Shown: positions 42,839 to 62,041 of the stretch, piece by piece
Layout: every line of letters begins with the position of its first letter
Position numbering within the stretch: the stretch's first letter is position 1
Virus record (IMG/VR): IMGVR_UViG_3300020473_000021
Span: 69,568-133,567 of that record
DNA length: 64,000 nucleotides
DNA from: a virus
Direction: 5' to 3' (one strand)
Position numbers and translations under genes: made by a program
The notes under the pieces: model-generated
The model's database searches: none
Seen by the model: the letters and a program-made list of their open reading frames with translations, nothing else
What the model was told of the DNA's origin: nothing

Positions 42839-44983
42839 ATGATCGTTTTTAAACAAGATTGGAGAAAATACCCTAAAGCGATTGTGGATACCAAGACGCC
42901 CAATAAATCATTCCTTAACATGGCGGCCCTACTTAGGGATATGGGCGTCGATCATTACTATTTCCACTTGGCTCTTTTACAGCCAGAGCTCCAGGGAGTT
43001 AATCCTCACGCAGAGGGTCTTACTCGAGATGAAAGAGCACGCGTTTTATACGAGTGTGATAATAATCCTTGGTATTACCTTCGTGAGATTGTTATTGACC
43101 ACGGTGCCGGTATTGAGATAGACGATAAACGCTTCAGAGCGAATCGTGCGAATATCGCTGCTATGTGGTTACTGTTAGCCTGTATCGATTATATCCAGAT
43201 CCAACCCCGTCAGACGGGTAAGTCCTATGGTACGGATAATAACTCGTTATGGCTGATGTATTTCTGTTATACAGACACACAACTTAACTTGATTACTAAA
43301 GATGAGTCGTTGCGTAAAAACAACATTGCTCGTCTAAAGAAACTTAGAGATGGTTGGCCTGATTGGCTAAACCGTAATACAAAGAAAGATGATAACAACC
43401 AAATCTCTTTGAGTTGCCAAGATCGCAACAATAAGTATTATACTCACGTATCTCAAAGTTCAGAAAAAGCAGCCAACAACCTTGGTCGTGGTATGACGTC
43501 GCCGTTCATACACATCGATGAGGGTCCGTTCATCAATCACATTGAGACAACTGTTTCTGCGGCAATGGGTTCAACCAACACGGCTCGTGAGATAGCGAAA
43601 CGAAAAGGTGTTCCTTATTGCACTATCTTTACCACAACAGCTGGTAACCAAGAAGATAGAGACGGGCGTTATGTCTACAACCTGATGAACGAGGCAGCAG
43701 TTTGGACTGAGCGTTTCTACGATTGCTTTGATCGAGATGATCTTGTTAAGCTGATTAAGACTAACTCATCTGGACGTTCGGTTATGGTTAACCTGACTAT
43801 GTCCGCATTGCAGTTAGGATTTAGTAAACAATGGTTGTATGAAGCTATTGCTAACGCACGCAGTGATGGTGATAATATCGATCGTGACTATTTCAACGTT
43901 TGGACGTCGAGTAGTAACTCATCGCTTATCCCTCAACATTTAGCTAAGCAAATACGTGCTTCTGAAATGCTACCGACCGATCAATGGATATCAAAAGAAA
44001 ACTACATCTTCCGTTGGTATGAAGATGTCGATCCATCTACATGGTACGTCCTGTGTGTGGATACTTCCGATGCCATTGGTCGAGATGATATTGCTGTTAC
44101 GCTGTTGAATTCTAAAACGGGAGCCACTGCTGGTTCTGCTACGTTTAATGAAACAAACCTAATGCGTTTTGCACAGTGGTTGTTAGAGTTCATGCTAACT
44201 TACAAGAACAGCGTATTGGTAATCGAACGTCGGTATAACGCGCAAACGATCATTGACTACTTGTTGTTAAAACTACCTGTCAATGGAGAAGATCCTTTTG
44301 TTCGGATTTTTAATCAGATCGTTCAAAAGCGTGATGAGCGTGGTGATGACTTTAGTAAGATATCCACTACGAATGTTTCGCGCCCTAAACATGTATACGA
44401 TCGATATCGTCGTGATTTTGGTTTTCTCACTAATAGCGATACTCGTAAATTACTTTATAATAACGTTATGATGAACGCTGCCAAGGACGTAGGTAGTAAG
44501 GTTCGCGATAAAACGTTAATTCACCAAATGCTTAACCTAGTTATTAAGAACAACCGCATCGATCATGGGTCGGGTGGTCATGATGACTTAGTCATTAGTT
44601 GGCTCATGGGTCATTGGTTCTTAAACTACGGTATCAATCTGAGTCATTATGGTTTAGATTCTAAGATGGTGATGATCGACAGAAATAGTGGTGGTAAGAA
44701 AATGTCTCCTAAAGAACGGATGGAGAGAGAAGAGCAGGAAGCTCTCATGAGTAAAGTTAAGACACTACACGAGAAGCTGAAAGAAGCAACCAGTCAGTTG
44801 GATATCATTCGATTGGAGATGGAACTTTCCTCAGTAATGTCGAAAGTGAAATCAACCGAGGATGATGGTATGACTCTAGACGCTTTATTGCAAGAAGCTA
44901 ATGAAGCGAGAGACGTTCGTCGTAATAACAAATATGGCGGTCGCAACCGACAGGCTTCCGAGCTTTTGCGATATCATAGCTAA
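42839..44983 (+). CDS. terL: terminase large subunit (phiKZ gp25-like)
   Basis: Walker A PRQTGKS, Walker B IHIDE, TTTAG coupling motif, nuclease CVDTS...HDDLVISW. Confidence 0.92.
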   Translation: MIVFKQDWRKYPKAIVDTKTPNKSFLNMAALLRDMGVDHYYFHLALLQPELQGVNPHAEGLTRDERARVLYECDNNPWYYLREIVIDHGAGIEIDDKRFRANRANIAAMWLLLACIDYIQIQPRQTGKSYGTDNNSLWLMYFCYTDTQLNLITKDESLRKNNIARLKKLRDGWPDWLNRNTKKDDNNQISLSCQDRNNKYYTHVSQSSEKAANNLGRGMTSPFIHIDEGPFINHIETTVSAAMGSTNTAREIAKRKGVPYCTIFTTTAGNQEDRDGRYVYNLMNEAAVWTERFYDCFDRDDLVKLIKTNSSGRSVMVNLTMSALQLGFSKQWLYEAIANARSDGDNIDRDYFNVWTSSSNSSLIPQHLAKQIRASEMLPTDQWISKENYIFRWYEDVDPSTWYVLCVDTSDAIGRDDIAVTLLNSKTGATAGSATFNETNLMRFAQWLLEFMLTYKNSVLVIERRYNAQTIIDYLLLKLPVNGEDPFVRIFNQIVQKRDERGDDFSKISTTNVSRPKHVYDRYRRDFGFLTNSDTRKLLYNNVMMNAAKDVGSKVRDKTLIHQMLNLVIKNNRIDHGSGGHDDLVISWLMGHWFLNYGINLSHYGLDSKMVMIDRNSGGKKMSPKERMEREEQEALMSKVKTLHEKLKEATSQLDIIRLEMELSSVMSKVKSTEDDGMTLDALLQEANEARDVRRNNKYGGRNRQASELLRYHS

Positions 44984-54335: not shown

Positions 54336-54755
54336 ATGGCTAATCTAAAAGATACCACGGTCAATGGTGAGTTGCGCGTGACGCGTGGTGTTAAAATGCT
54401 AGGGCCTCTCTTGAGGTTTTTCAAGAGTCCGACGTATGGTACTGGTGAGCCAATAGAATATGTTAAGGTCGTCGATACTGACGTCAATATCGGTGCCAAT
54501 ACGAATATCCAATATAACTTAGGCGATTACGTTAGTGATGTTTCTAAGTTTGATATTCGAGGGGCTCGTATTGAAGTTACCGCCTTGGATACCGAAACGG
54601 GGTCTCCTACAAATGGCGACTACGTAAACTCAGAAGCAATGATCACTAAAGCTATCTCTGGTGGTAATGCTGTTAAACTACATAACTACTCTAACGCAAC
54701 TGCTCAATGTAAGGTATATATCGCACTTCCCATTAAAGCAAGGGCTAATGCATGA
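54336..54755 (+). CDS. small fibre-associated protein
   Basis: 139-aa beta-rich ORF coupled (ATGA) to the next gene. Confidence 0.65.
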   Translation: MANLKDTTVNGELRVTRGVKMLGPLLRFFKSPTYGTGEPIEYVKVVDTDVNIGANTNIQYNLGDYVSDVSKFDIRGARIEVTALDTETGSPTNGDYVNSEAMITKAISGGNAVKLHNYSNATAQCKVYIALPIKARANA

Positions 54756-57700
54756 TAGTAAAACCGAATAAGGTACCGGGACACTACCCGGTACCCATCG
54801 ACTTGAGATTAAAAGGCGAGTCGTTAGTAGACACTGTTGCATTGTCTAAAAACGCTGCGCCTCCGGCTAACTCTAAATACATCGGGTATGATGAGTTAAC
54901 GCCACCTAATCCATTTCTTGCTGTTACTCAAGATGGTAAAGGTAATGTTGTATATGACGGTGGTTTTCCTAAGTTCTACAATACTAGATCTTTACCTGCT
55001 GGAACACCTTTCAGTGAGTTGAATGCACAACATAAATTCCTTTGGAATGCTGTAAACTTTATTGCCAATAAGCAAAAGGTTGCATCTGGTAATAAGGAAG
55101 TGTTGTTAATTGGCGATCGAACTGCCGATAATTACTGGGTGAAGTCGACCATCGGTAATGGTTTTAAGACCACATTCACCAACGTCATTACGACGATGGG
55201 TTACAATCTAACCATTAAGGATGCAAACGATTACGGTGGTATCATCGATGCGACCTTAAGTGAGTTGGAACAATACTGTTGCGTTATCTTCATGTCGTCT
55301 TGGTATACAGACCAGCCAAAGATAACACAAGCATGTATCAATAACTTCCTGACATATCGTCAAAACGGTAGTGGTTTGTTTTTCATCACTGACCACGGTA
55401 ACGTCATTAATGATTTTGATACAGCAGTTAACGGTAGTTATAGTGGTTTCTTTAGAACTGCCAATGCCATTACGGTTAACTTTGGTGCTTGGTTCTCTGG
55501 GAACTACGATAGAACGAGTGTAAATGTTGGTTACCTACGAAACAACTATGGCGATCACCCACTTTATAGTGGTTTGTCTGATGCTGAAAACATTTCTGCG
55601 GGTGGTAGTGAGTCTGAGGTTGTTTTGGCGAGTAATGACACATTCTCGGGTGATGCGATACCTGACATAAACATAAACTCTAGTGGCGTCAATACAGTCA
55701 ACGTTTTATCAGTTACAAAAGATGGTGAGGTTGTCACTGAGCGATATCTATACACCATTGGTAGTAATCCGCTTGTTAGCGTTAAAACTCAAGGTACGAG
55801 AATTCCATTCGGTGGAACTATTGAGACCTATAAAAAGTTTGCTGACTTTGACTTCATCAATAACTTTCCTGAACTGGGTACGCTAGTGGGTGAAGTTTAC
55901 ATCGATGGCGTTTATCTGGGTACGGTGAATATAGACGGTAATAGATCCACCTACAAGTGGATAACCGATCCATTGACACCGATTATATCTGGTAGCGATC
56001 TACGGCTTGAAATCATACAACCATATCGCTATACGTTAAATTGGACCATCAATCAGTTGAGTACTGGTTTTGGCGATGCTAGAAGTAAATGGCGGTTGTT
56101 TGATACTGATTTCATAAAAGGTAGGGGTTTGGGTTTAATACGCAACATAAACTCTCACTTTGCCGAATCAATCAAACCGACATATCGTCCGGATAGCGCG
56201 AGTGTACTTGATGATTTGGAAGTGTATGAAAGTGGTGAGGTTGACTTTGGATCAATCGAGGTTTACTTAGTTGGTGATTTTCAGGAGATATTCAACAACA
56301 GACTATTCAGTCCAACCGAGAAAGTCACTGTGGTGAACAGAAACACTCGGGAGGTATATCTACCTACTGATAATGGTTGGGTTTTATCCGATAAGTCCGC
56401 TGGTGAACTTTTGGGCGTGGGAAGGACATTGATTGATAAGTACAATCGTTCCACTTACGTAACAACAGATCAACCTAGAGTTAACGTTACTTATCCAGAA
56501 CAGACACCGCTTTACGATGACCAAAAGAAATATGGTTACTGTAGCATCGTCCAATCTCCGTATCTAACTTGGTGGGTTCCAATTGAAGTATTGACCGCCA
56601 AATGGATCTGGGATAGAACTACAGCAGGTAGTACAGCTCCTGTAAATGAATCTGTACATTTAAGAAAGTGGTTCAATAGCCCCTATACTGGAACGGCAAC
56701 TTTAAAAGTTGGTTGTGATGATGCTGTAAACGGTCTGTGGGTAAATGGTGAGCTGGTTAAATCTGGTAGTATAAACCATCAACTGGGTGAAACGCACACC
56801 ATTAACGTAAGGCAAGGCATGAATTTGATTCATGCAGAATGTTACAACAGTGGTGGACCTGCTGGTTTCTTAGCCTACATCTTAAGTAGAGATGGTGACT
56901 TACTTACTAAGACCGATTCTAGTTGGTTGAAGTACTCGATCCCCAATAAGGACATTGGTGCCATTCGCGTTACTAACGATGACGATATATCGATTCCTTA
57001 CGATGAAAATATGGTTTTATCGCCAGATGACGTCATTGAGTATGAAGTCGATTTTCGTTCCAATGGACCACCTGGTGGGTGTCTGGTATCTATACACTAT
57101 TACAGGGATTCTGTTGGTGGTACACACCGTGGATTAGATATCTATAGTGGTAGCGGTAGTTCATCGTTAGCGGCTCACCTAATACATAATTGGGAAAGTT
57201 CTGGTGGCGATCAGGCCATTCGCATAAATACCGATGTGGGTGGTAATGGTTTTGTAGATGTCTGGGATAATCAATGGCACAATATTAAAGTTGTCTACGA
57301 TGGTTCTAGATTGGAAAGTGGTTTGTCGATGTATGTCGACGGAGTAAAACAACCACTACAGACTGCTCCAGACAACCCAAGAGCGGGAAACCAGTCATTG
57401 TTGAATGCTGGTGTTCTAAGTGCTAAAGGGGCACCCGTTAGAGTTGGGGGTAGAACTAATGTGGACGACACACCTTACTATCCATTAAATACGGGCGACT
57501 ATAAGAACTTTAAGATAAAGCGCAATGGTGTAGTGATTGGTTACTACCCGATGCATGAGTCTTATAATGGTCGTTTCTTCGACTATGGTGTATATAGCGT
57601 CCATTCAGATGTTGCTCCACCAACGACCACATCATGGACGACTAGCTGGAATACGTCCAGATCTACCGAATGGACAACAAGTTGGACGAGTAATAAAACA

Positions 57701-58666
57701 ACGAGTTGGACGACGTCGGTGGATACAAGTCGTGGTACATCACACACGACAAATTGGACAAGTAGCTATACCACAAGTTGGGGAACTTCAAGAGGAACAA
57801 GTCGTAGTACTACGATAAGTACATCTTGGAGTACATCAAGGACAACCACTTGGGATAGTAGTCGTACGACAAGTTATACTACTAGCTGGACTGGTAGTCG
57901 GACTACGAGTCGGGTGGAATCTAAAACCACTAGTTGGACAACCAGTTGGTCGGGTAGTCGCAGTACTAGTCGAACTGAGTCTAGGACGACATCGTGGACT
58001 ACGTCATGGAGTGCCAGCAGAAGTACCAGTCGAACCACTAGTAAGAGTTACTCTCGTTCTACTTCGAAAGGTACTTCATGGACGACGAGTTGGACTGGTA
58101 GTCGTGGTACTAGTCGTAGTACTAGTAAGAGTACTTCTAAATTGACGAGTCGATCTACCTTTATCGGTCCTATCGACGTTTGTATTTCTTTAGATACTAA
58201 ATTAATGTTAGCGTCTGGGGAAACAATGGATGCGAGACACGTTAAAGTTGGTGATGTCCTTAAGGGTGTTGATATCGAAGGTATGATCGATGAATCAGAC
58301 CCACGTTGGGAAAGTTGGTCTACTCGATATTTAGAAAACCCTAGGATAAAAGACGTAACTGTAAAACACGTTAGATTTGGGTCATTTAGGGCTATCTATC
58401 TCGTTAACAACAAGTTAGCTATAACCAAGCAACATAAGGTACTAGCTAAACACAACGGACGGTGGTCTTGGTGGGATATACGAGATATTGAACTTGGCGA
58501 TATCATGTTGGATCAAAACCTAGGTGAGGTAGAGGTAGAAAAATTAGACTATTTAGATGGTGACGTAGAAACCGTAACTATTGATGTTGAAGAGTCTGAT
58601 ACTTACTTTGCTGGTGGGTTGTTGGTTCACAACATACCCGGTGGCGGAAGCCAAGTTAAGAGATAA
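54752..58666 (+). CDS. multi-domain putative virion appendage protein: carbohydrate-binding/LamG-like domains, 44 TTSX repeats and C-terminal Hint domain
   Basis: Jelly-roll-like AKWIW...GCDD..WVNG...GPAGF; LamG-like WHNIKVVYDG..MYVDG; Thr/Ser/Trp/Arg tetrapeptide tract; CISLDT...VKVGD...TYFAGGLLVHN. Confidence 0.8.
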   Translation: MIVKPNKVPGHYPVPIDLRLKGESLVDTVALSKNAAPPANSKYIGYDELTPPNPFLAVTQDGKGNVVYDGGFPKFYNTRSLPAGTPFSELNAQHKFLWNAVNFIANKQKVASGNKEVLLIGDRTADNYWVKSTIGNGFKTTFTNVITTMGYNLTIKDANDYGGIIDATLSELEQYCCVIFMSSWYTDQPKITQACINNFLTYRQNGSGLFFITDHGNVINDFDTAVNGSYSGFFRTANAITVNFGAWFSGNYDRTSVNVGYLRNNYGDHPLYSGLSDAENISAGGSESEVVLASNDTFSGDAIPDININSSGVNTVNVLSVTKDGEVVTERYLYTIGSNPLVSVKTQGTRIPFGGTIETYKKFADFDFINNFPELGTLVGEVYIDGVYLGTVNIDGNRSTYKWITDPLTPIISGSDLRLEIIQPYRYTLNWTINQLSTGFGDARSKWRLFDTDFIKGRGLGLIRNINSHFAESIKPTYRPDSASVLDDLEVYESGEVDFGSIEVYLVGDFQEIFNNRLFSPTEKVTVVNRNTREVYLPTDNGWVLSDKSAGELLGVGRTLIDKYNRSTYVTTDQPRVNVTYPEQTPLYDDQKKYGYCSIVQSPYLTWWVPIEVLTAKWIWDRTTAGSTAPVNESVHLRKWFNSPYTGTATLKVGCDDAVNGLWVNGELVKSGSINHQLGETHTINVRQGMNLIHAECYNSGGPAGFLAYILSRDGDLLTKTDSSWLKYSIPNKDIGAIRVTNDDDISIPYDENMVLSPDDVIEYEVDFRSNGPPGGCLVSIHYYRDSVGGTHRGLDIYSGSGSSSLAAHLIHNWESSGGDQAIRINTDVGGNGFVDVWDNQWHNIKVVYDGSRLESGLSMYVDGVKQPLQTAPDNPRAGNQSLLNAGVLSAKGAPVRVGGRTNVDDTPYYPLNTGDYKNFKIKRNGVVIGYYPMHESYNGRFFDYGVYSVHSDVAPPTTTSWTTSWNTSRSTEWTTSWTSNKTTSWTTSVDTSRGTSHTTNWTSSYTTSWGTSRGTSRSTTISTSWSTSRTTTWDSSRTTSYTTSWTGSRTTSRVESKTTSWTTSWSGSRSTSRTESRTTSWTTSWSASRSTSRTTSKSYSRSTSKGTSWTTSWTGSRGTSRSTSKSTSKLTSRSTFIGPIDVCISLDTKLMLASGETMDARHVKVGDVLKGVDIEGMIDESDPRWESWSTRYLENPRIKDVTVKHVRFGSFRAIYLVNNKLAITKQHKVLAKHNGRWSWWDIRDIELGDIMLDQNLGEVEVEKLDYLDGDVETVTIDVEESDTYFAGGLLVHNIPGGGSQVKR
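57626..58153 (+). repeat. 44 tandem tetrapeptides (T/S-T-S-X), outbound tract
   Basis: Direct parse of the translation from TTSW TTSW NTSR to STSK LTSR, with no register break. Confidence 0.92.
58181..58633 (+). other. Hint (intein-like/BIL-type) autoprocessing domain, 151 aa, no endonuclease
   Basis: Cys1 (CISLDTKL), block B-like ITKQH, block F-like TIDVEESDTYF, terminal His-Asn; +1 residue is Ile. Confidence 0.88.
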
Positions 58667-58677
58667 CGGGAGCTACT

Positions 58678-59241
58678 ATGGCAACAACGAGTTGGACGAC
58701 GTCTTGGAGTACGTCTAAAGGTACGTCGTGGAATACAAGCGTTGGAAAAAGTAGGGGGACGAGTCGTTCCACGTCGAAGGGGACGTCTTGGAGTTCTAAC
58801 GTAACAACCTCTTGGACTACTCGATGGACAGCATCTCGCGGTACTAGCGTGACGACGTCGTGGTCGACGTCTTGGAACACTTCGGTTAGTTATAGTCGCT
58901 CGACATCTAGGTCGACCGATAAAACAACTAGTTGGAGTACCAACGTTGCATATAATCGTACGACAAGCTATACGACGACTTGGTCTAATAGTCGAACGAC
59001 AACATGGAACACTAGTATAAGTACCACGATCACTACCTCATGGACAACTAGTTGGAATACGTCTAAAACTACTTCGGTGGCGAAGAGTAAGACAACGAAC
59101 TATAGTACATCGTGGAATACTAGCTGGACTACATCTAAGACGACATCGGTTAGTGGTTCTAGGTTGACTTCAAGGACGACGACGTTTCAGACGTCTAAAT
59201 CGACATCGACTACATTAGGTATAAAGCAACTAACGCTGTGA
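58678..59241 (+). CDS. protein composed almost entirely of TTSX repeats (putative partner strand)
   Basis: GGGAG SD; MA + 44 tetrapeptide units + TLGIKQLTL. Confidence 0.8.
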   Translation: MATTSWTTSWSTSKGTSWNTSVGKSRGTSRSTSKGTSWSSNVTTSWTTRWTASRGTSVTTSWSTSWNTSVSYSRSTSRSTDKTTSWSTNVAYNRTTSYTTTWSNSRTTTWNTSISTTITTSWTTSWNTSKTTSVAKSKTTNYSTSWNTSWTTSKTTSVSGSRLTSRTTTFQTSKSTSTTLGIKQLTL

Positions 59242-59329: not shown

Positions 59330-62041
59330 ATGAGTGAATTAAATTTCAAATACCCTCTAGATCTAACTGGTGTTGATTCTGTCAACCGGGTCTTAGGGGA
59401 AGGACACTCAATAGGCGAAGGTTTTAATCGACTAATCGTTCCTATTGAAGGTGCTTTTTATACCGACGGGTTGATTGTTCGAGATACCGTGAATGGCGGT
59501 GAACTTGTTCCTAAAGATCAATACCTACCTATTTTATTCTACCAAGAACCTTCCGAGCGAAGTGGTAAGGAAGTATGTTGTGCTATCGCTATCGTTGATC
59601 GTAGCGTTAGTACAGAAGTTGAGATTGAGTACCAAGCGGTAGGTGATGTTTACTCTAACATCACTAGTTTGATACTTGATAAAGTAACCGACATTAACCT
59701 CGATGACTATAATCTCATCTGGGGTGATCTACTGGGAAACCTAGATGTTTTTCCCGGTGATGGCGATCTTAGAGAGTTGGGCGCAATATATGGCTTTGAG
59801 TTCGTAGCTAAAGCACTCAATGATTTAAGGGATGCGATCTTCTTTGGTGATATCGATGATCACGATCGATTAAAGCAAGTGATAGAAAATAAATATCAGT
59901 TAGCTTACAACAAAGCTGTCAACATCAATGATGAGGCTGAAGCCCATTATGCTCGCACTGACGATCCTCATGATGTTACTAAACATCAGATTGAGTTAGG
60001 TAAAGTTGACAATCATCCAACTGCATCGGTTGAAGATGATGTTCAGGGTACGAATAATCAGAAATATAGTACGCCTGCTGGTATTCGTGATTCTATTCGC
60101 ATCAACGCTATAGAGCCTTTGAATTCCCACATCAACAATACTGACGATCCTCATGATGTAACGCAAACGCAAATAGGTTTGTCTCGGTTGCATAACTGGT
60201 CGACTCCAGATAAAGCAACGGCTGAACTGGGTGAGTCTACCGAACACTACATGACGCCATTGTCGTTATCTCAAGCGATTGCGGCTCAACTTGGTGATGC
60301 GATAGAAGAACATGTAGCAAATAAGAGCAACCCACACCAAGTGACAAAAGCGCAAGTGGGACTATCACGTTTGGGTAACTATCCACCCGCTAGTGAAGCT
60401 GAAGCTGTCGAGGGTGTCCGGTATGATCGGTTAATAACTGTTAAGAATGCGGGCGATGCAATAAACGCTAGCGCTAAACCTCTTCTAGAGGAGCACGTTA
60501 ACGATTTCAATAACCCACATGAGGTTACTGCTGCTCAAGTAGGGTTGGGTAATGTGGATGATGTATCGTTTGCTCAAATGCAAAACCGATATATTGAGAA
60601 AGGGAAAGCATCGACCGTTACTGTTGTGGGACCAACTCAAGCTCTGCAAGGTGAAACTGTAGAATGGGTTATCACCAATTACGATATCTTTACCAATTAT
60701 GATATCTCCGGTGATTTCGGTGACCTTACAGTTAATGGTGATACCATCAGTAAAACTATTGATTCGTCAACACCAACGGGCGATCGGACGCTGTCTATTC
60801 GTGTGGGTAATAATACTCGTGAATTACCAATTAAGATCATTGGTCGTGGTGTTAATAAACCAAGTATCACTAGTCCGAATGATGATGCTCGCGGCATCTC
60901 ACTTAACACGACGATGACGAGTAGTTCATTTACAACAACACCTTCTGGTATCGATAGTCATGAGTCTAGTCAATGGCAACTATCTAAAGTAGTTGACTTT
61001 AGTAGTATTGCTGTCAACGAAACTGTGGGTGGTAGTGAACGTACAGCTTGGAGTACACCTACACTCGATAGAAACTCTGTGTATTATGCACGTGTTCGAT
61101 ATAAGGGTGCTGGATCTGGTTGGAGTCCTTGGTCTGATGTAATCATGTTTAAGACTGCCGATATCACAACGACTAGTTTCTCCACTAGTCGCACCACCGA
61201 TAAGGCAACTAACTGGAATAGTAGTTACACTACTCAATGGCAGAGCTCTCGGGCAACGAGTCGTACGACTAGTCGTCAGACTGTTGTGGGTAATGTGTAT
61301 ACTACTCAATATCAGACTAACTTCACTACAAGTTGGACTGGTAGTCGCAACACTAGTGTACCGCAATCTAAACAAACATCTAGAACGGTAAGTCGTACAA
61401 CGAGTTGGACGACAACTTACTCAGTTAGTCGTAGTACTACGAAAACTACGAGTAGGTCAACTTCGGTGGCTACCACTAGAATTACATCGGTAACCACGTC
61501 AAGAACTACGAGTAAGACTACGAGTAAGACTACTAACTACACCACTTCGTACATGTACGATGATGGTCGAAGCCCCAGTAGTTGTTTGCAGGGTTACTAC
61601 GATGGTCCTTACTATAGATGTATGGAACCTGGTGTACCTAAGCGGACATATTACACTACGCAGAAATCTACTAGTTACACCACTTCTTGGACTACTAGTT
61701 GGAGTACGAATAGATCAACATCCATTAGCGTCAATAAGACAACCTCTTGGAGTTATAGTGCCAACACCAGTGTGCAGACGACAGAAACGTTATCTCGCAA
61801 TACTAGTTGGACTACGACATATACAACCAATTGGTCTGTCGATAGATCAACAGATGTTAATTATAGTCGCAGCACCAGTAGAACGACCGAACAAATATTG
61901 GACAACAGTGATGTTCGTACAACATCATGGACCACCAATTATACTTCGTCGTGGACAAACTCTAGAACAACAGAGTCAGCCACAAATCGCACTACTGCTA
62001 AGACGACAACGTTCCAAACTTCACGCCCAACCGAAGTTTAA
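59330..62041 (+). CDS. tail fibre-like protein with FN3 domain and C-terminal TTSX hairpin
   Basis: phiKZ-type fibre N-terminus (YPLDLTG..N), four (D/N)PHxVT..Q(V/I)xL repeats, FN3-like YYARVRY..GWSPWS, then 32+32 tetrapeptides around a Cys-Cys loop. Confidence 0.8.
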   Translation: MSELNFKYPLDLTGVDSVNRVLGEGHSIGEGFNRLIVPIEGAFYTDGLIVRDTVNGGELVPKDQYLPILFYQEPSERSGKEVCCAIAIVDRSVSTEVEIEYQAVGDVYSNITSLILDKVTDINLDDYNLIWGDLLGNLDVFPGDGDLRELGAIYGFEFVAKALNDLRDAIFFGDIDDHDRLKQVIENKYQLAYNKAVNINDEAEAHYARTDDPHDVTKHQIELGKVDNHPTASVEDDVQGTNNQKYSTPAGIRDSIRINAIEPLNSHINNTDDPHDVTQTQIGLSRLHNWSTPDKATAELGESTEHYMTPLSLSQAIAAQLGDAIEEHVANKSNPHQVTKAQVGLSRLGNYPPASEAEAVEGVRYDRLITVKNAGDAINASAKPLLEEHVNDFNNPHEVTAAQVGLGNVDDVSFAQMQNRYIEKGKASTVTVVGPTQALQGETVEWVITNYDIFTNYDISGDFGDLTVNGDTISKTIDSSTPTGDRTLSIRVGNNTRELPIKIIGRGVNKPSITSPNDDARGISLNTTMTSSSFTTTPSGIDSHESSQWQLSKVVDFSSIAVNETVGGSERTAWSTPTLDRNSVYYARVRYKGAGSGWSPWSDVIMFKTADITTTSFSTSRTTDKATNWNSSYTTQWQSSRATSRTTSRQTVVGNVYTTQYQTNFTTSWTGSRNTSVPQSKQTSRTVSRTTSWTTTYSVSRSTTKTTSRSTSVATTRITSVTTSRTTSKTTSKTTNYTTSYMYDDGRSPSSCLQGYYDGPYYRCMEPGVPKRTYYTTQKSTSYTTSWTTSWSTNRSTSISVNKTTSWSYSANTSVQTTETLSRNTSWTTTYTTNWSVDRSTDVNYSRSTSRTTEQILDNSDVRTTSWTTNYTSSWTNSRTTESATNRTTAKTTTFQTSRPTEV
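61169..62026 (+). repeat. two 32-unit TTSX tracts flanking a 30-aa loop (61553-61642)
   Basis: Direct parse: TTSF...TTSY / MYDDGRSPSSCLQGYYDGPYYRCMEPGVPK / RTYY...QTSR. Confidence 0.9.

Follow-up and report, generated by a model that had tools for sequence, protein, structure and literature searches.

The window analyzed here (64,000 nucleotides) is the final part of a 133.6-kb IMG/VR viral contig (IMGVR_UViG_3300020473_000021) that originated from an uncultured phage and has an estimated completeness of 48%. The gene at 59330..62041 (+), delimited by its open reading frame (ORF) and translation, encodes a 903-amino-acid (aa) fiber protein, P0001. The C-terminal part of P0001 is complementary to itself, i.e., two equal arms of Thr-rich tetrapeptides match each other across a short loop in one sharp antiparallel register, and pairing of the same kind recurs in other phage contigs. 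We infer that these 290 residues (61169-62041 [+], in frame with the ORF; residues 614-903 plus the stop codon) form a self-pairing two-stranded beta-hairpin stalk that presents the loop, and we put the probability of this reading, which draws on sequence and structural models, at roughly 0.7. An initial annotation of the window had proposed such a stalk with a variable binding tip. The self-complementary hairpin was supported by the register, a pairing matrix learnt elsewhere, relatives with matched arms, and AlphaFold2 (AF2) models, while the variable binding tip found little backing.

Parsing of the translation yielded an outbound arm of 32 T-T-S-X tetrapeptides (aa 614-741; 61169..61552 [+]), a tip loop of 30 aa (MYDDG...GVPK; aa 742-771; 61553..61642 [+]), and an inbound arm of 32 tetrapeptides (aa 772-899; 61643..62026 [+]) that is complementary to the reversed outbound arm. 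The loop contains two cysteines (Cys752, 61583-61585 [+]; Cys764, 61619-61621 [+]) and five tyrosines, and the protein ends with PTEV and the stop codon (62027..62041 [+]). Thr or Ser accounts for 142 of the 290 residues. This layout reproduced the initial annotation exactly, including its two strings of fourth residues, which matched letter for letter. In the loop-anchored antiparallel register, which places residue i opposite residue 1516-i, the end of the chain lines up with the beginning of the outbound arm, and 25 of the 32 fourth-residue pairs set a basic residue (R/K) against an aromatic or aliphatic one (W/Y/F/V/I/L/M). Counting K:A, the total is 26; both counts agree with those originally given. 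Shuffling one arm resulted in a mean of 13.5 rule-keeping pairs, and none of 200,000 shuffles reached 25. Among the other registers, 16 antiparallel ones (-8 to +8) kept the rule at 0.24 to 0.52 of pairs, and 17 parallel ones kept it at no more than 0.64, the best of which came from 25 pairs and was within the noise range. Constant-lag parallel stacking, as in a beta-solenoid or parallel beta-helix shaft, was not found over the 17 parallel registers; the signal was antiparallel only. A beta-solenoid had been raised as a fold that would contradict a hairpin.

Because the residue classes had been set by the earlier reader after viewing the data, the test was repeated with a log-odds matrix learnt from an unrelated duplex encoded by two adjacent genes (L026, described below). 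Over 49 registers, the loop-anchored one alone was positive (+46.6 bits over 125 pairs; next, -1.7). When the tetrapeptides were reordered at random 100,000 times, this score was reached once (z, 4.4). When the same matrix was used to scan the whole of P0001 for fold-back, the top center was at aa 758.0 (48.4 bits), and the next (25.4 bits) was in the unrelated N-terminal domain.

The residues at position 4 of the tetrapeptides follow the facing rule to different extents. All 21 occurrences of Trp (11), Phe (3), Val (6), and Ile (1) are opposite R/K. Position 2 is opposite position 2, with T:T in 20 of 32 cases, and on the other face of the predicted ribbon Thr/Ser is opposite Ser. Two irregular stretches, which the initial annotation had placed opposite each other, overlap in register but are offset by about one tetrapeptide. 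The outbound QTVVGNVY (aa 650-657; 61277..61300 [+]) is opposite inbound residues 859-866, and the inbound TTEQILDNSDVR (aa 852-863; 61883..61918 [+]) is opposite outbound residues 653-664. This irregular zone (QTVVGNVY opposite ..EQILDNSDVR..), located about two-thirds of the way from the tip to the base and kept in the homologue P0003 (see below), clusters Val, Ile, and Leu within an otherwise polar ribbon. The zone might serve for bending or for docking.

Two DNA-level origins of the protein complementarity were ruled out. A DNA palindrome was rejected, as no long inverted repeat was detected between the arms (best, 25 nt at 72%), and a recent tandem duplication was rejected, as Tandem Repeats Finder detected only 2-copy arrays of 12 nt in the repeat DNA. 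Given that there is neither a long inverted repeat nor a recent tandem array, the pattern is kept at the protein level.

To look for similar proteins elsewhere, we searched IMG/VR with a back-translated TTSWTTSWxTS pattern and obtained 89 stretches, many with several matches. ORFs carrying 8 or more T-[TS]-[ST]-X motifs numbered 56 in these stretches; the 35 with at least 25 motifs were analyzed, and the others were dropped. All five adjacent gene pairs tested exhibited antiparallel pairing between the two chains at one sharp register. The strongest was L026 (1212 + 1042 aa), with 185 basic:aromatic pairs (next register, 111; best parallel, 61), in which the chains match over ~1000 residues and the commonest pairs are T:T (308), S:T (106), R:W (47), H:Y (42), K:W (37), and Q:W (22). 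It was followed by L005 (1152 + 975 aa; 158 pairs; next register, 94), L031 (1119 + 941 aa; 153; next, 92), L009 (955 + 975 aa; 122; next, 84), and L084 (579 + 574 aa; 33; next, 25).

A fold-back scan of the 35 Thr-rich ORFs revealed 7 (5 distinct proteins) with one dominant center on a central loop or knob, as in P0001. Their scores were 313 to 362 bits (L043/L017/L070), 299 bits (L080), 238 bits (L041), 198 bits (L051), and 125 bits (L046). L046 has arms of 213/213 aa and a tip of ~103 aa with six Cys and many Tyr and Asn. The L041 gene (as locus L098) encodes arms of ~417/410 aa and a 42-aa hydrophobic tip, while the L051 gene (as locus L099) encodes arms of ~424/416 aa that turn without an insert (center, residue 427; 301.5 bits versus 7.0 for the next). 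L080 has arms of at least 542 aa and a tip of ~170 aa with weaker, still Thr-rich pairing around a short GGDAKAKAAE stretch. In L043, arms of 795/795 aa meet at a four-Cys knob of 78 aa, and the protein has just 24 and 12 residues beyond its arms. In these proteins, aromatic residues are never opposite one another (0 of 179 aromatic-containing pairs in L043). Across six complete fold-back proteins, the arms range from 128 to ~795 aa, are equal within ~10 residues, and leave the chain ends level, while the tips are varied. Independent variation of the two arms in length, which the initial annotation had named as an outcome that would speak against a hairpin, is thus not seen in these six class members. 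Where neighbors of the fold-back and pair genes had PHROG matches, these were tail-fiber or virion families.

Several of these proteins consist of little else. The L043 gene (3230-8335 [-]) encodes a 1701-aa protein that is nothing but hairpin, would extend ~260 nm as a straight ribbon, and has no Pfam match. L098 (G001:C1:51500-58500) and L099 (G003:C1:62000-69000) are likewise stand-alone hairpins; the motif M-x-x-G-F-F-x-(V/I)-(F/Y)-x-W-S-T opens their chains, and N-(Y/F)-Y-Q closes them. Judging from these sequences, both chain ends would come together at the base, where the site of virion attachment may lie.

P0001 has the features of this Thr-rich pairing class, i.e., one sharp antiparallel register, no parallel one, and equal segments (128/128). 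The two-gene pairs (L005, L009, L026, L031, and L084) resemble the P0001 hairpin in composition, facing rule, and fiber-gene context. However, they are composed of two separate polypeptides of ~950-1200 aa, whereas P0001 has both strands in one chain, joined by a loop, behind a conventional fiber N terminus. In 7 of its 32 pairs, P0001 also sets Val/Ile opposite basic residues, a combination absent from the L026 pair. Searches with Pfam detected no families in P0001 and three of the IMG/VR Thr-rich proteins, and we found no published name for the two-gene Thr-rich fiber pairs. Repeats of such composition are not reliably alignable, and P0001 may share descent with the other Thr-rich pairing proteins or may have converged with them.

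Two-chain cassettes are also present in the phage that encodes P0001. Directly upstream of the P0001 gene, a 1304-aa fiber (54752-58666 [+]) with a Thr-rich arm and a C-terminal Hint-like domain adjoins a 187-aa partner consisting entirely of repeats (58678-59241 [+]). The arm of the fiber (aa ~959-1137) and the 187-aa protein pair antiparallel at 33 of 44 fourth residues, with 120 bits at one register (next, 24.2; best parallel, 35.6). Residue 3 of the partner is opposite fiber residue 1137. The Hint-like domain begins seven residues further on, with Cys1144; the duplex tip is therefore expected at a self-cleaving-type domain. In Pfam, this domain had only a subthreshold match (Intein_splicing; E, 0.0059). 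A second cassette, about 18-19 kb before the window (L094 1836-5374 = G000:C1:46835-50373 [-]), encodes a 1027-aa fiber (Thr-rich arm, Gly7 linker, and Hint-like end) and, after it, a 147-aa Thr-rich protein. These two pair antiparallel (45.5 bits versus -12.7). Partner residue 3 is opposite residue 861, the Hint Cys867 follows six residues later, and the fold-back scan detected no fold-back of the Thr-rich arm of the 1027-aa fiber on itself. From the positions of the cysteines, the Hint-like domain may cleave the duplex tip or close it covalently. A glycosyltransferase was considered for the 311-aa gene upstream of the second cassette and was discarded, since Pfam offered no support (best, DUF2254 at E 0.2).

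A comparison within the family of P0001 itself was possible with one close homologue, P0003 (903 aa), which aligns to P0001 without gaps at 80% identity. Identical residues numbered 425/519 in the N-terminal part, 73/94 in the FN3-like domain, 99/128 in the outbound arm, 101/128 in the inbound arm, and 16/30 in the loop. The loop is thus the most divergent region (16/30 versus 698/869 elsewhere; Fisher p 0.001), and P0003 keeps its length and both Cys. Position 2 of the tetrapeptides is the most conserved (29/32 in the outbound arm and 31/32 in the inbound arm), and most changes at position 4 are within class (K/R, Y/F). QTVVGNVY appears as QTVVGQVY in P0003, and TTEQILDNSDVR appears as TTEEILDTSDVR. 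The divergence of the loop is consistent with the variable binding tip of the initial annotation, but a single homologue lends that idea limited weight.

Structure prediction was carried out with AF2 on the central 158 residues (aa 678-835) using a two-row alignment. The best model was a long hairpin (mean predicted local distance difference test score [pLDDT], 69.5) in which the strands at aa 679-741 and 770-833 were uninterrupted and the loop contained a small hairpin (aa 755-758/761-764). The long hairpin was obtained in two of five models (second pLDDT, 67.8). Prediction, which had been suggested as a check on the stalk, thus returned the hairpin with moderate confidence for the central segment but not for the longer tract (see below). 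Foldseek searches with the AF2 mini-hairpin returned only staves of oligomeric barrels at template modeling (TM) scores of 0.11-0.25, namely, the phi29 tail (6qz9), the lysenin pore (5ec5), and the stems of aerolysin, anthrax protective antigen (PA), and CDTb. Judged from the models, these are shape analogues and not relatives; they occur only in barrels of 7 to 24 staves and, unlike the P0001 ribbon, both faces of which are predicted to be polar, they are amphipathic. Searches of the ESM Atlas gave feature scores of no more than 0.80 to unnamed viral clusters and TM scores of no more than 0.37 to outer-membrane barrels, which appear to mean no more than "long strands." In a phmmer search of PDB sequences, whole P0001 had no match at E of 0.01 or less, and the tail had one chance match (E, 1.6).

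These data suggest the following arrangement. Residues 614-741 would run outward, and residues 772-899 would return alongside as the antiparallel partner strand. The resulting beta-ribbon would have two strands, about 125-128 residue pairs, and a register set by the sequence. Residues i and 1516-i would be adjacent and share a face. One face would carry Trp/Phe/Val/Ile opposite Arg/Lys at every fourth residue with Thr:Thr between, and the opposite face would carry Thr/Ser:Ser pairs. Thr has a high beta propensity, and cross-strand aromatic-cation contacts are stabilizing; the ribbon would probably derive its stability from these two sources and not from a hydrophobic core. The N-terminal ~520 residues would anchor the protein to the virion as in other jumbo-phage fibers. 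The C terminus would come back to the FN3-like domain, leaving the Tyr-rich loop with its two Cys, which may form a disulfide, at the far end. As a straight ribbon, the stalk would measure about 42 nm (128 x 0.33 nm) and hold the loop tens of nanometers away. The tip loop, which would be at the far end and is the fastest-changing part, is the most likely to touch the host surface or receptor.

Elements of this arrangement have precedents. The bovine ultralong antibody complementarity-determining region (CDR) H3 has a two-stranded beta-ribbon stalk of about a dozen residues per strand that carries a knob with several disulfides. Like the putative P0001 stalk, it presents a small knob away from the body on a ribbon; it is located within an immunoglobulin and diversifies somatically, and the analogy, drawn in the initial annotation, is one of shape only. 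Aromatic residues opposite Arg/Lys across strands occur in the Trp-Arg layers of thrombospondin type-1 repeats, in WSXWS motifs, and in designed Trp-zipper/cation-pi hairpins, and the coreless single-layer sheet of OspA is an example of a beta-sheet that is stable without a hydrophobic core. To our knowledge, the aromatic-basic pairs of small proteins span 2-6 pairs, and none is a position-by-position register code over >100 residues.

The nearest published system is the distal needle of T4 gp37. In the available text on this structure, the needle is trimeric, its domain D10 is built from residues 811-881 and 1010-1026, seven iron atoms are bound by His, and the tip residues contact receptors (PMC6957217). 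The needle (D10-D11) and the P0001 stalk are alike in being thin, elongated, distal fiber ends, and the P0001 chain, judging from its register and the models, would run to the tip and back as that of gp37 does. P0001 is nevertheless not a member of this system, as it lacks His in aa 614-903, whereas gp37 is an obligate trimer with His-bound iron, and it lacks sequence similarity to PDB entries. Further differences are that gp37 has neither the tetrapeptide repeat nor the aromatic:basic facing rule and requires the chaperones gp38 and gp57A, and that the arms of P0001 are ~2 times as long as those of gp37, with the arms of its relatives up to ~12 times as long. The words "hairpin" and "threonine" are absent from the available text of a tail-fiber structure atlas of 16 classes (PMC12143355), and tentaclins, as far as they are described in the accessible text (PMC10743442), are unrelated to the P0001 stalk. 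No account of Thr-rich mirrored repeats was found among the top full-text matches of our literature search, whose coverage did not extend to subscription journals and supplements. Because membership in the gp37 system fails, no Pfam family matches, the literature matches hold no description, and the atlas is silent, we rate the P0001 stalk, with its predicted fold, as a new kind of fiber shaft.

Several observations weigh against a hairpin stalk of this kind. In P0001, 7 of the 32 fourth-residue pairs break the rule, and of the 10 Tyr at position 4, only 4 are opposite R/K. Fewer pairs (21 of 32) are rule-keeping in P0003 than in P0001, and one change from R:Y to V:F in P0003 breaks the rule without compensation; both loop variability and covariation of the arms within this family are assessed from n = 1 homologue. 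Of the 35 Thr-rich ORFs, 28 have no dominant fold-back peak, many being two-chain partners or cut by locus ends. In one 1282-aa fold-back ORF (L033 2453.. [+]), 80 of 116 aromatic-containing pairs are aromatic:aromatic, mostly F opposite W, and the protein is nearly devoid of basic residues (16 R/K/H versus 234 W/Y/F); the pairing code is therefore not universal and has dialects. Among the models, the other three AF2 models of the mini-hairpin had pLDDT values of 38.7-45.7, and the strand limits at 741 and 770 in the best one do not obviously fit the predicted register. AF2 without an alignment gave a pLDDT of 34.7 for aa 519-903, with strands on either side of the loop, and the ESMFold model in the Atlas had a pLDDT of 0.54. 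Finally, a coreless ribbon may need oligomerization for its stability.

The last point leads to a refinement of the hairpin stalk that we regard as possible, if tentative, namely, a homotrimer in which three hairpins bundle into a six-stranded rod or narrow barrel, with either the Thr/Ser face or the aromatic:basic face turned inward and the other outward. Bundling would stabilize a coreless two-stranded ribbon, and the long two-stranded hairpins returned by Foldseek were all staves of oligomeric barrels (TM, 0.11-0.25). The N-terminal part of P0001 is homologous to jumbo-phage tail-fiber/virion proteins, and tail fibers are typically trimers, according to the available text of the atlas (PMC12143355); the T4 needle, in which each chain goes out and back, is a trimeric precedent (PMC6957217). 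The sequence, however, bears no mark of a third, inter-hairpin contact, both faces being already paired within the hairpin, and with 0 His in 290 residues there can be no metal sites of the gp37 type. Moreover, stand-alone fold-back proteins have just 12-24 residues outside the arms, and thus the design needs no trimerizing domain.

A doubtful alternative assigns the function to the stalk surface, which would act as a putative adhesin along polysaccharide (capsule, exopolysaccharide, or cell wall) with the loop as a mere turn. The arms account for 256 of the 290 residues and are the conserved, expandable element (128 to ~795 residues), while some relatives have no knob (L099 and L080) or quite different tips. 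Surfaces rich in aromatic and hydroxyl groups are typical of carbohydrate-binding sites, although the aromatics here are already engaged with basic partners. Against this alternative, the divergence from P0003 is in the loop and not in the arms, and the tips of P0001, L043, and L046, with conserved Cys and many Tyr or Asn, look like small folded modules.

It is improbable that the complementarity reflects a domain-swapped antiparallel dimer, in which the outbound arm of one chain would lie on the inbound arm of the other, with the loops in the middle of a rod twice the length of the hairpin. A symmetric antiparallel homodimer would satisfy the sequence complementarity equally, and two-chain antiparallel pairing does occur in the Thr-rich class, but the virion-anchoring N-terminal domains would then sit at both ends of the rod. 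Of the two arrangements, the hairpin alone accounts for a register that is centered exactly on a short loop (30-33 residues) and for a chain that stops level with the point at which the first arm begins. In addition, AF2 folds the monomer as a hairpin, and some relatives, e.g., L099 (center, residue 427), have no loop at the turn. Least probable is a disordered, perhaps O-glycosylated Thr/Ser linker or a beta-solenoid with structurally meaningless complementarity; a Thr/Ser content of 142/290 and the low confidence of the predictors over the full tract would fit, but such a reading accounts neither for the register-specific antiparallel complementarity (0/200,000 and 1/100,000 shuffles) nor for the matched arm lengths across proteins, the parallel registers carry no signal, the conservation of position 2 (29/32 and 31/32) is unlike that of a linker, and the candidate glycosyltransferase gene near the second cassette had no support in Pfam.

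With regard to the self-pairing hairpin stalk and its two-chain counterparts, we lean slightly toward a broader proposal, namely, that phages own a readable code of beta-strand side-chain pairing that fixes an antiparallel register over 10^2-10^3 residues, occurs in three formats in this genome, and would let the number of mirrored repeat units set fiber length. The content of the code would be aromatic/aliphatic opposite basic and Thr opposite Thr, with subcodes (Q:W, H:Y, and F:W) in other lineages, and it would be to beta-sheets what the heptad code is to coiled coils. The three formats in this genome would be a one-chain hairpin, a two-chain duplex, and two duplexes whose junction is at a Hint-type domain, where the tip may be closed covalently.

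If the predicted fold is true, it represents a shaft principle apart from the coiled coil, the triple beta-helix, the beta-spiral, and the gp37 needle, i.e., a coreless two-stranded ribbon with a register that is written in the sequence and readable by eye. It would account for a substantial number of very large phage proteins without family assignment, and the host-touching end of such proteins would be predictable as the turn. It would also supply a natural rule set for the design of long, length-programmable beta-duplexes. The one-chain form in P0001 (290 residues) is the smallest and most tractable example.

The remaining part of P0001 is that of a conventional fiber. The N-terminal anchor and shaft (aa 1-519; 59330..60886 [+]) contains repeated ..NPH(D/Q/E)VT.. 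motifs. The profile phrog_2163, annotated as "virion structural protein," matches residues 1-280 (E, 8.2e-97), while aa 200-420 match a number of tail or tail-fiber PHROGs. In tblastn searches, aa 1-~440 exhibited 31-40% identity to annotated tail-fiber/virion proteins of the cultured jumbo phages Xoo-sp14, Goslar, PhiEaH1, and RP12. The phage is a jumbo phage, in keeping with this similarity of the N-terminal half of the fiber. P0001 fits the jumbo-phage tail-fiber/virion structural proteins (phrog_2163 group) by its N-terminal family profile and by its place among virion and fiber genes. The terminase gene (42839-44983) is followed by four large genes, some with tail-fiber or structural PHROG matches, and the P0001 gene closes this run of large co-oriented structural/fiber genes.

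The segment between the anchor and the repeats (aa 520-613; 60887..61168 [+]) had been called FN3-like. Proteins aligning to aa ~520-613 (P0004-P0007) carry PF00041, PF16656, and PF25788 in precomputed annotations, and a single-sequence AF2 model had short strands at low confidence, which supports that assignment indirectly. Pfam, however, was silent on P0001 itself, with no matches at E of 0.01 or less, the FN3-like segment included.

Sequence searches returned few relatives. A HMMER search of 1.84 billion representatives detected only two proteins, i.e., P0001's own cluster and P0011 (E, 4.8e-4), and phrog_30374 matched P0001 (E, 1.7e-4). Searches of 50,697 phage records with the gene or the tail (megablast, tblastn, and blastn) left the tail without a match, although the low-complexity filter of BLAST may mask such repeats. 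A search for related loci in IMG/VR found none, and a scan of two cultured relatives with the back-translated repeat yielded one isolated match in Xoo-sp14 and none in FLC4-3B. Among the IMG/VR stretches, a 398-aa ORF (L073 7905.. [+]) combines a short Thr-rich arm of TTSW/TTSR units with a Gly-rich C-terminal half containing GGGGSGG.. runs.

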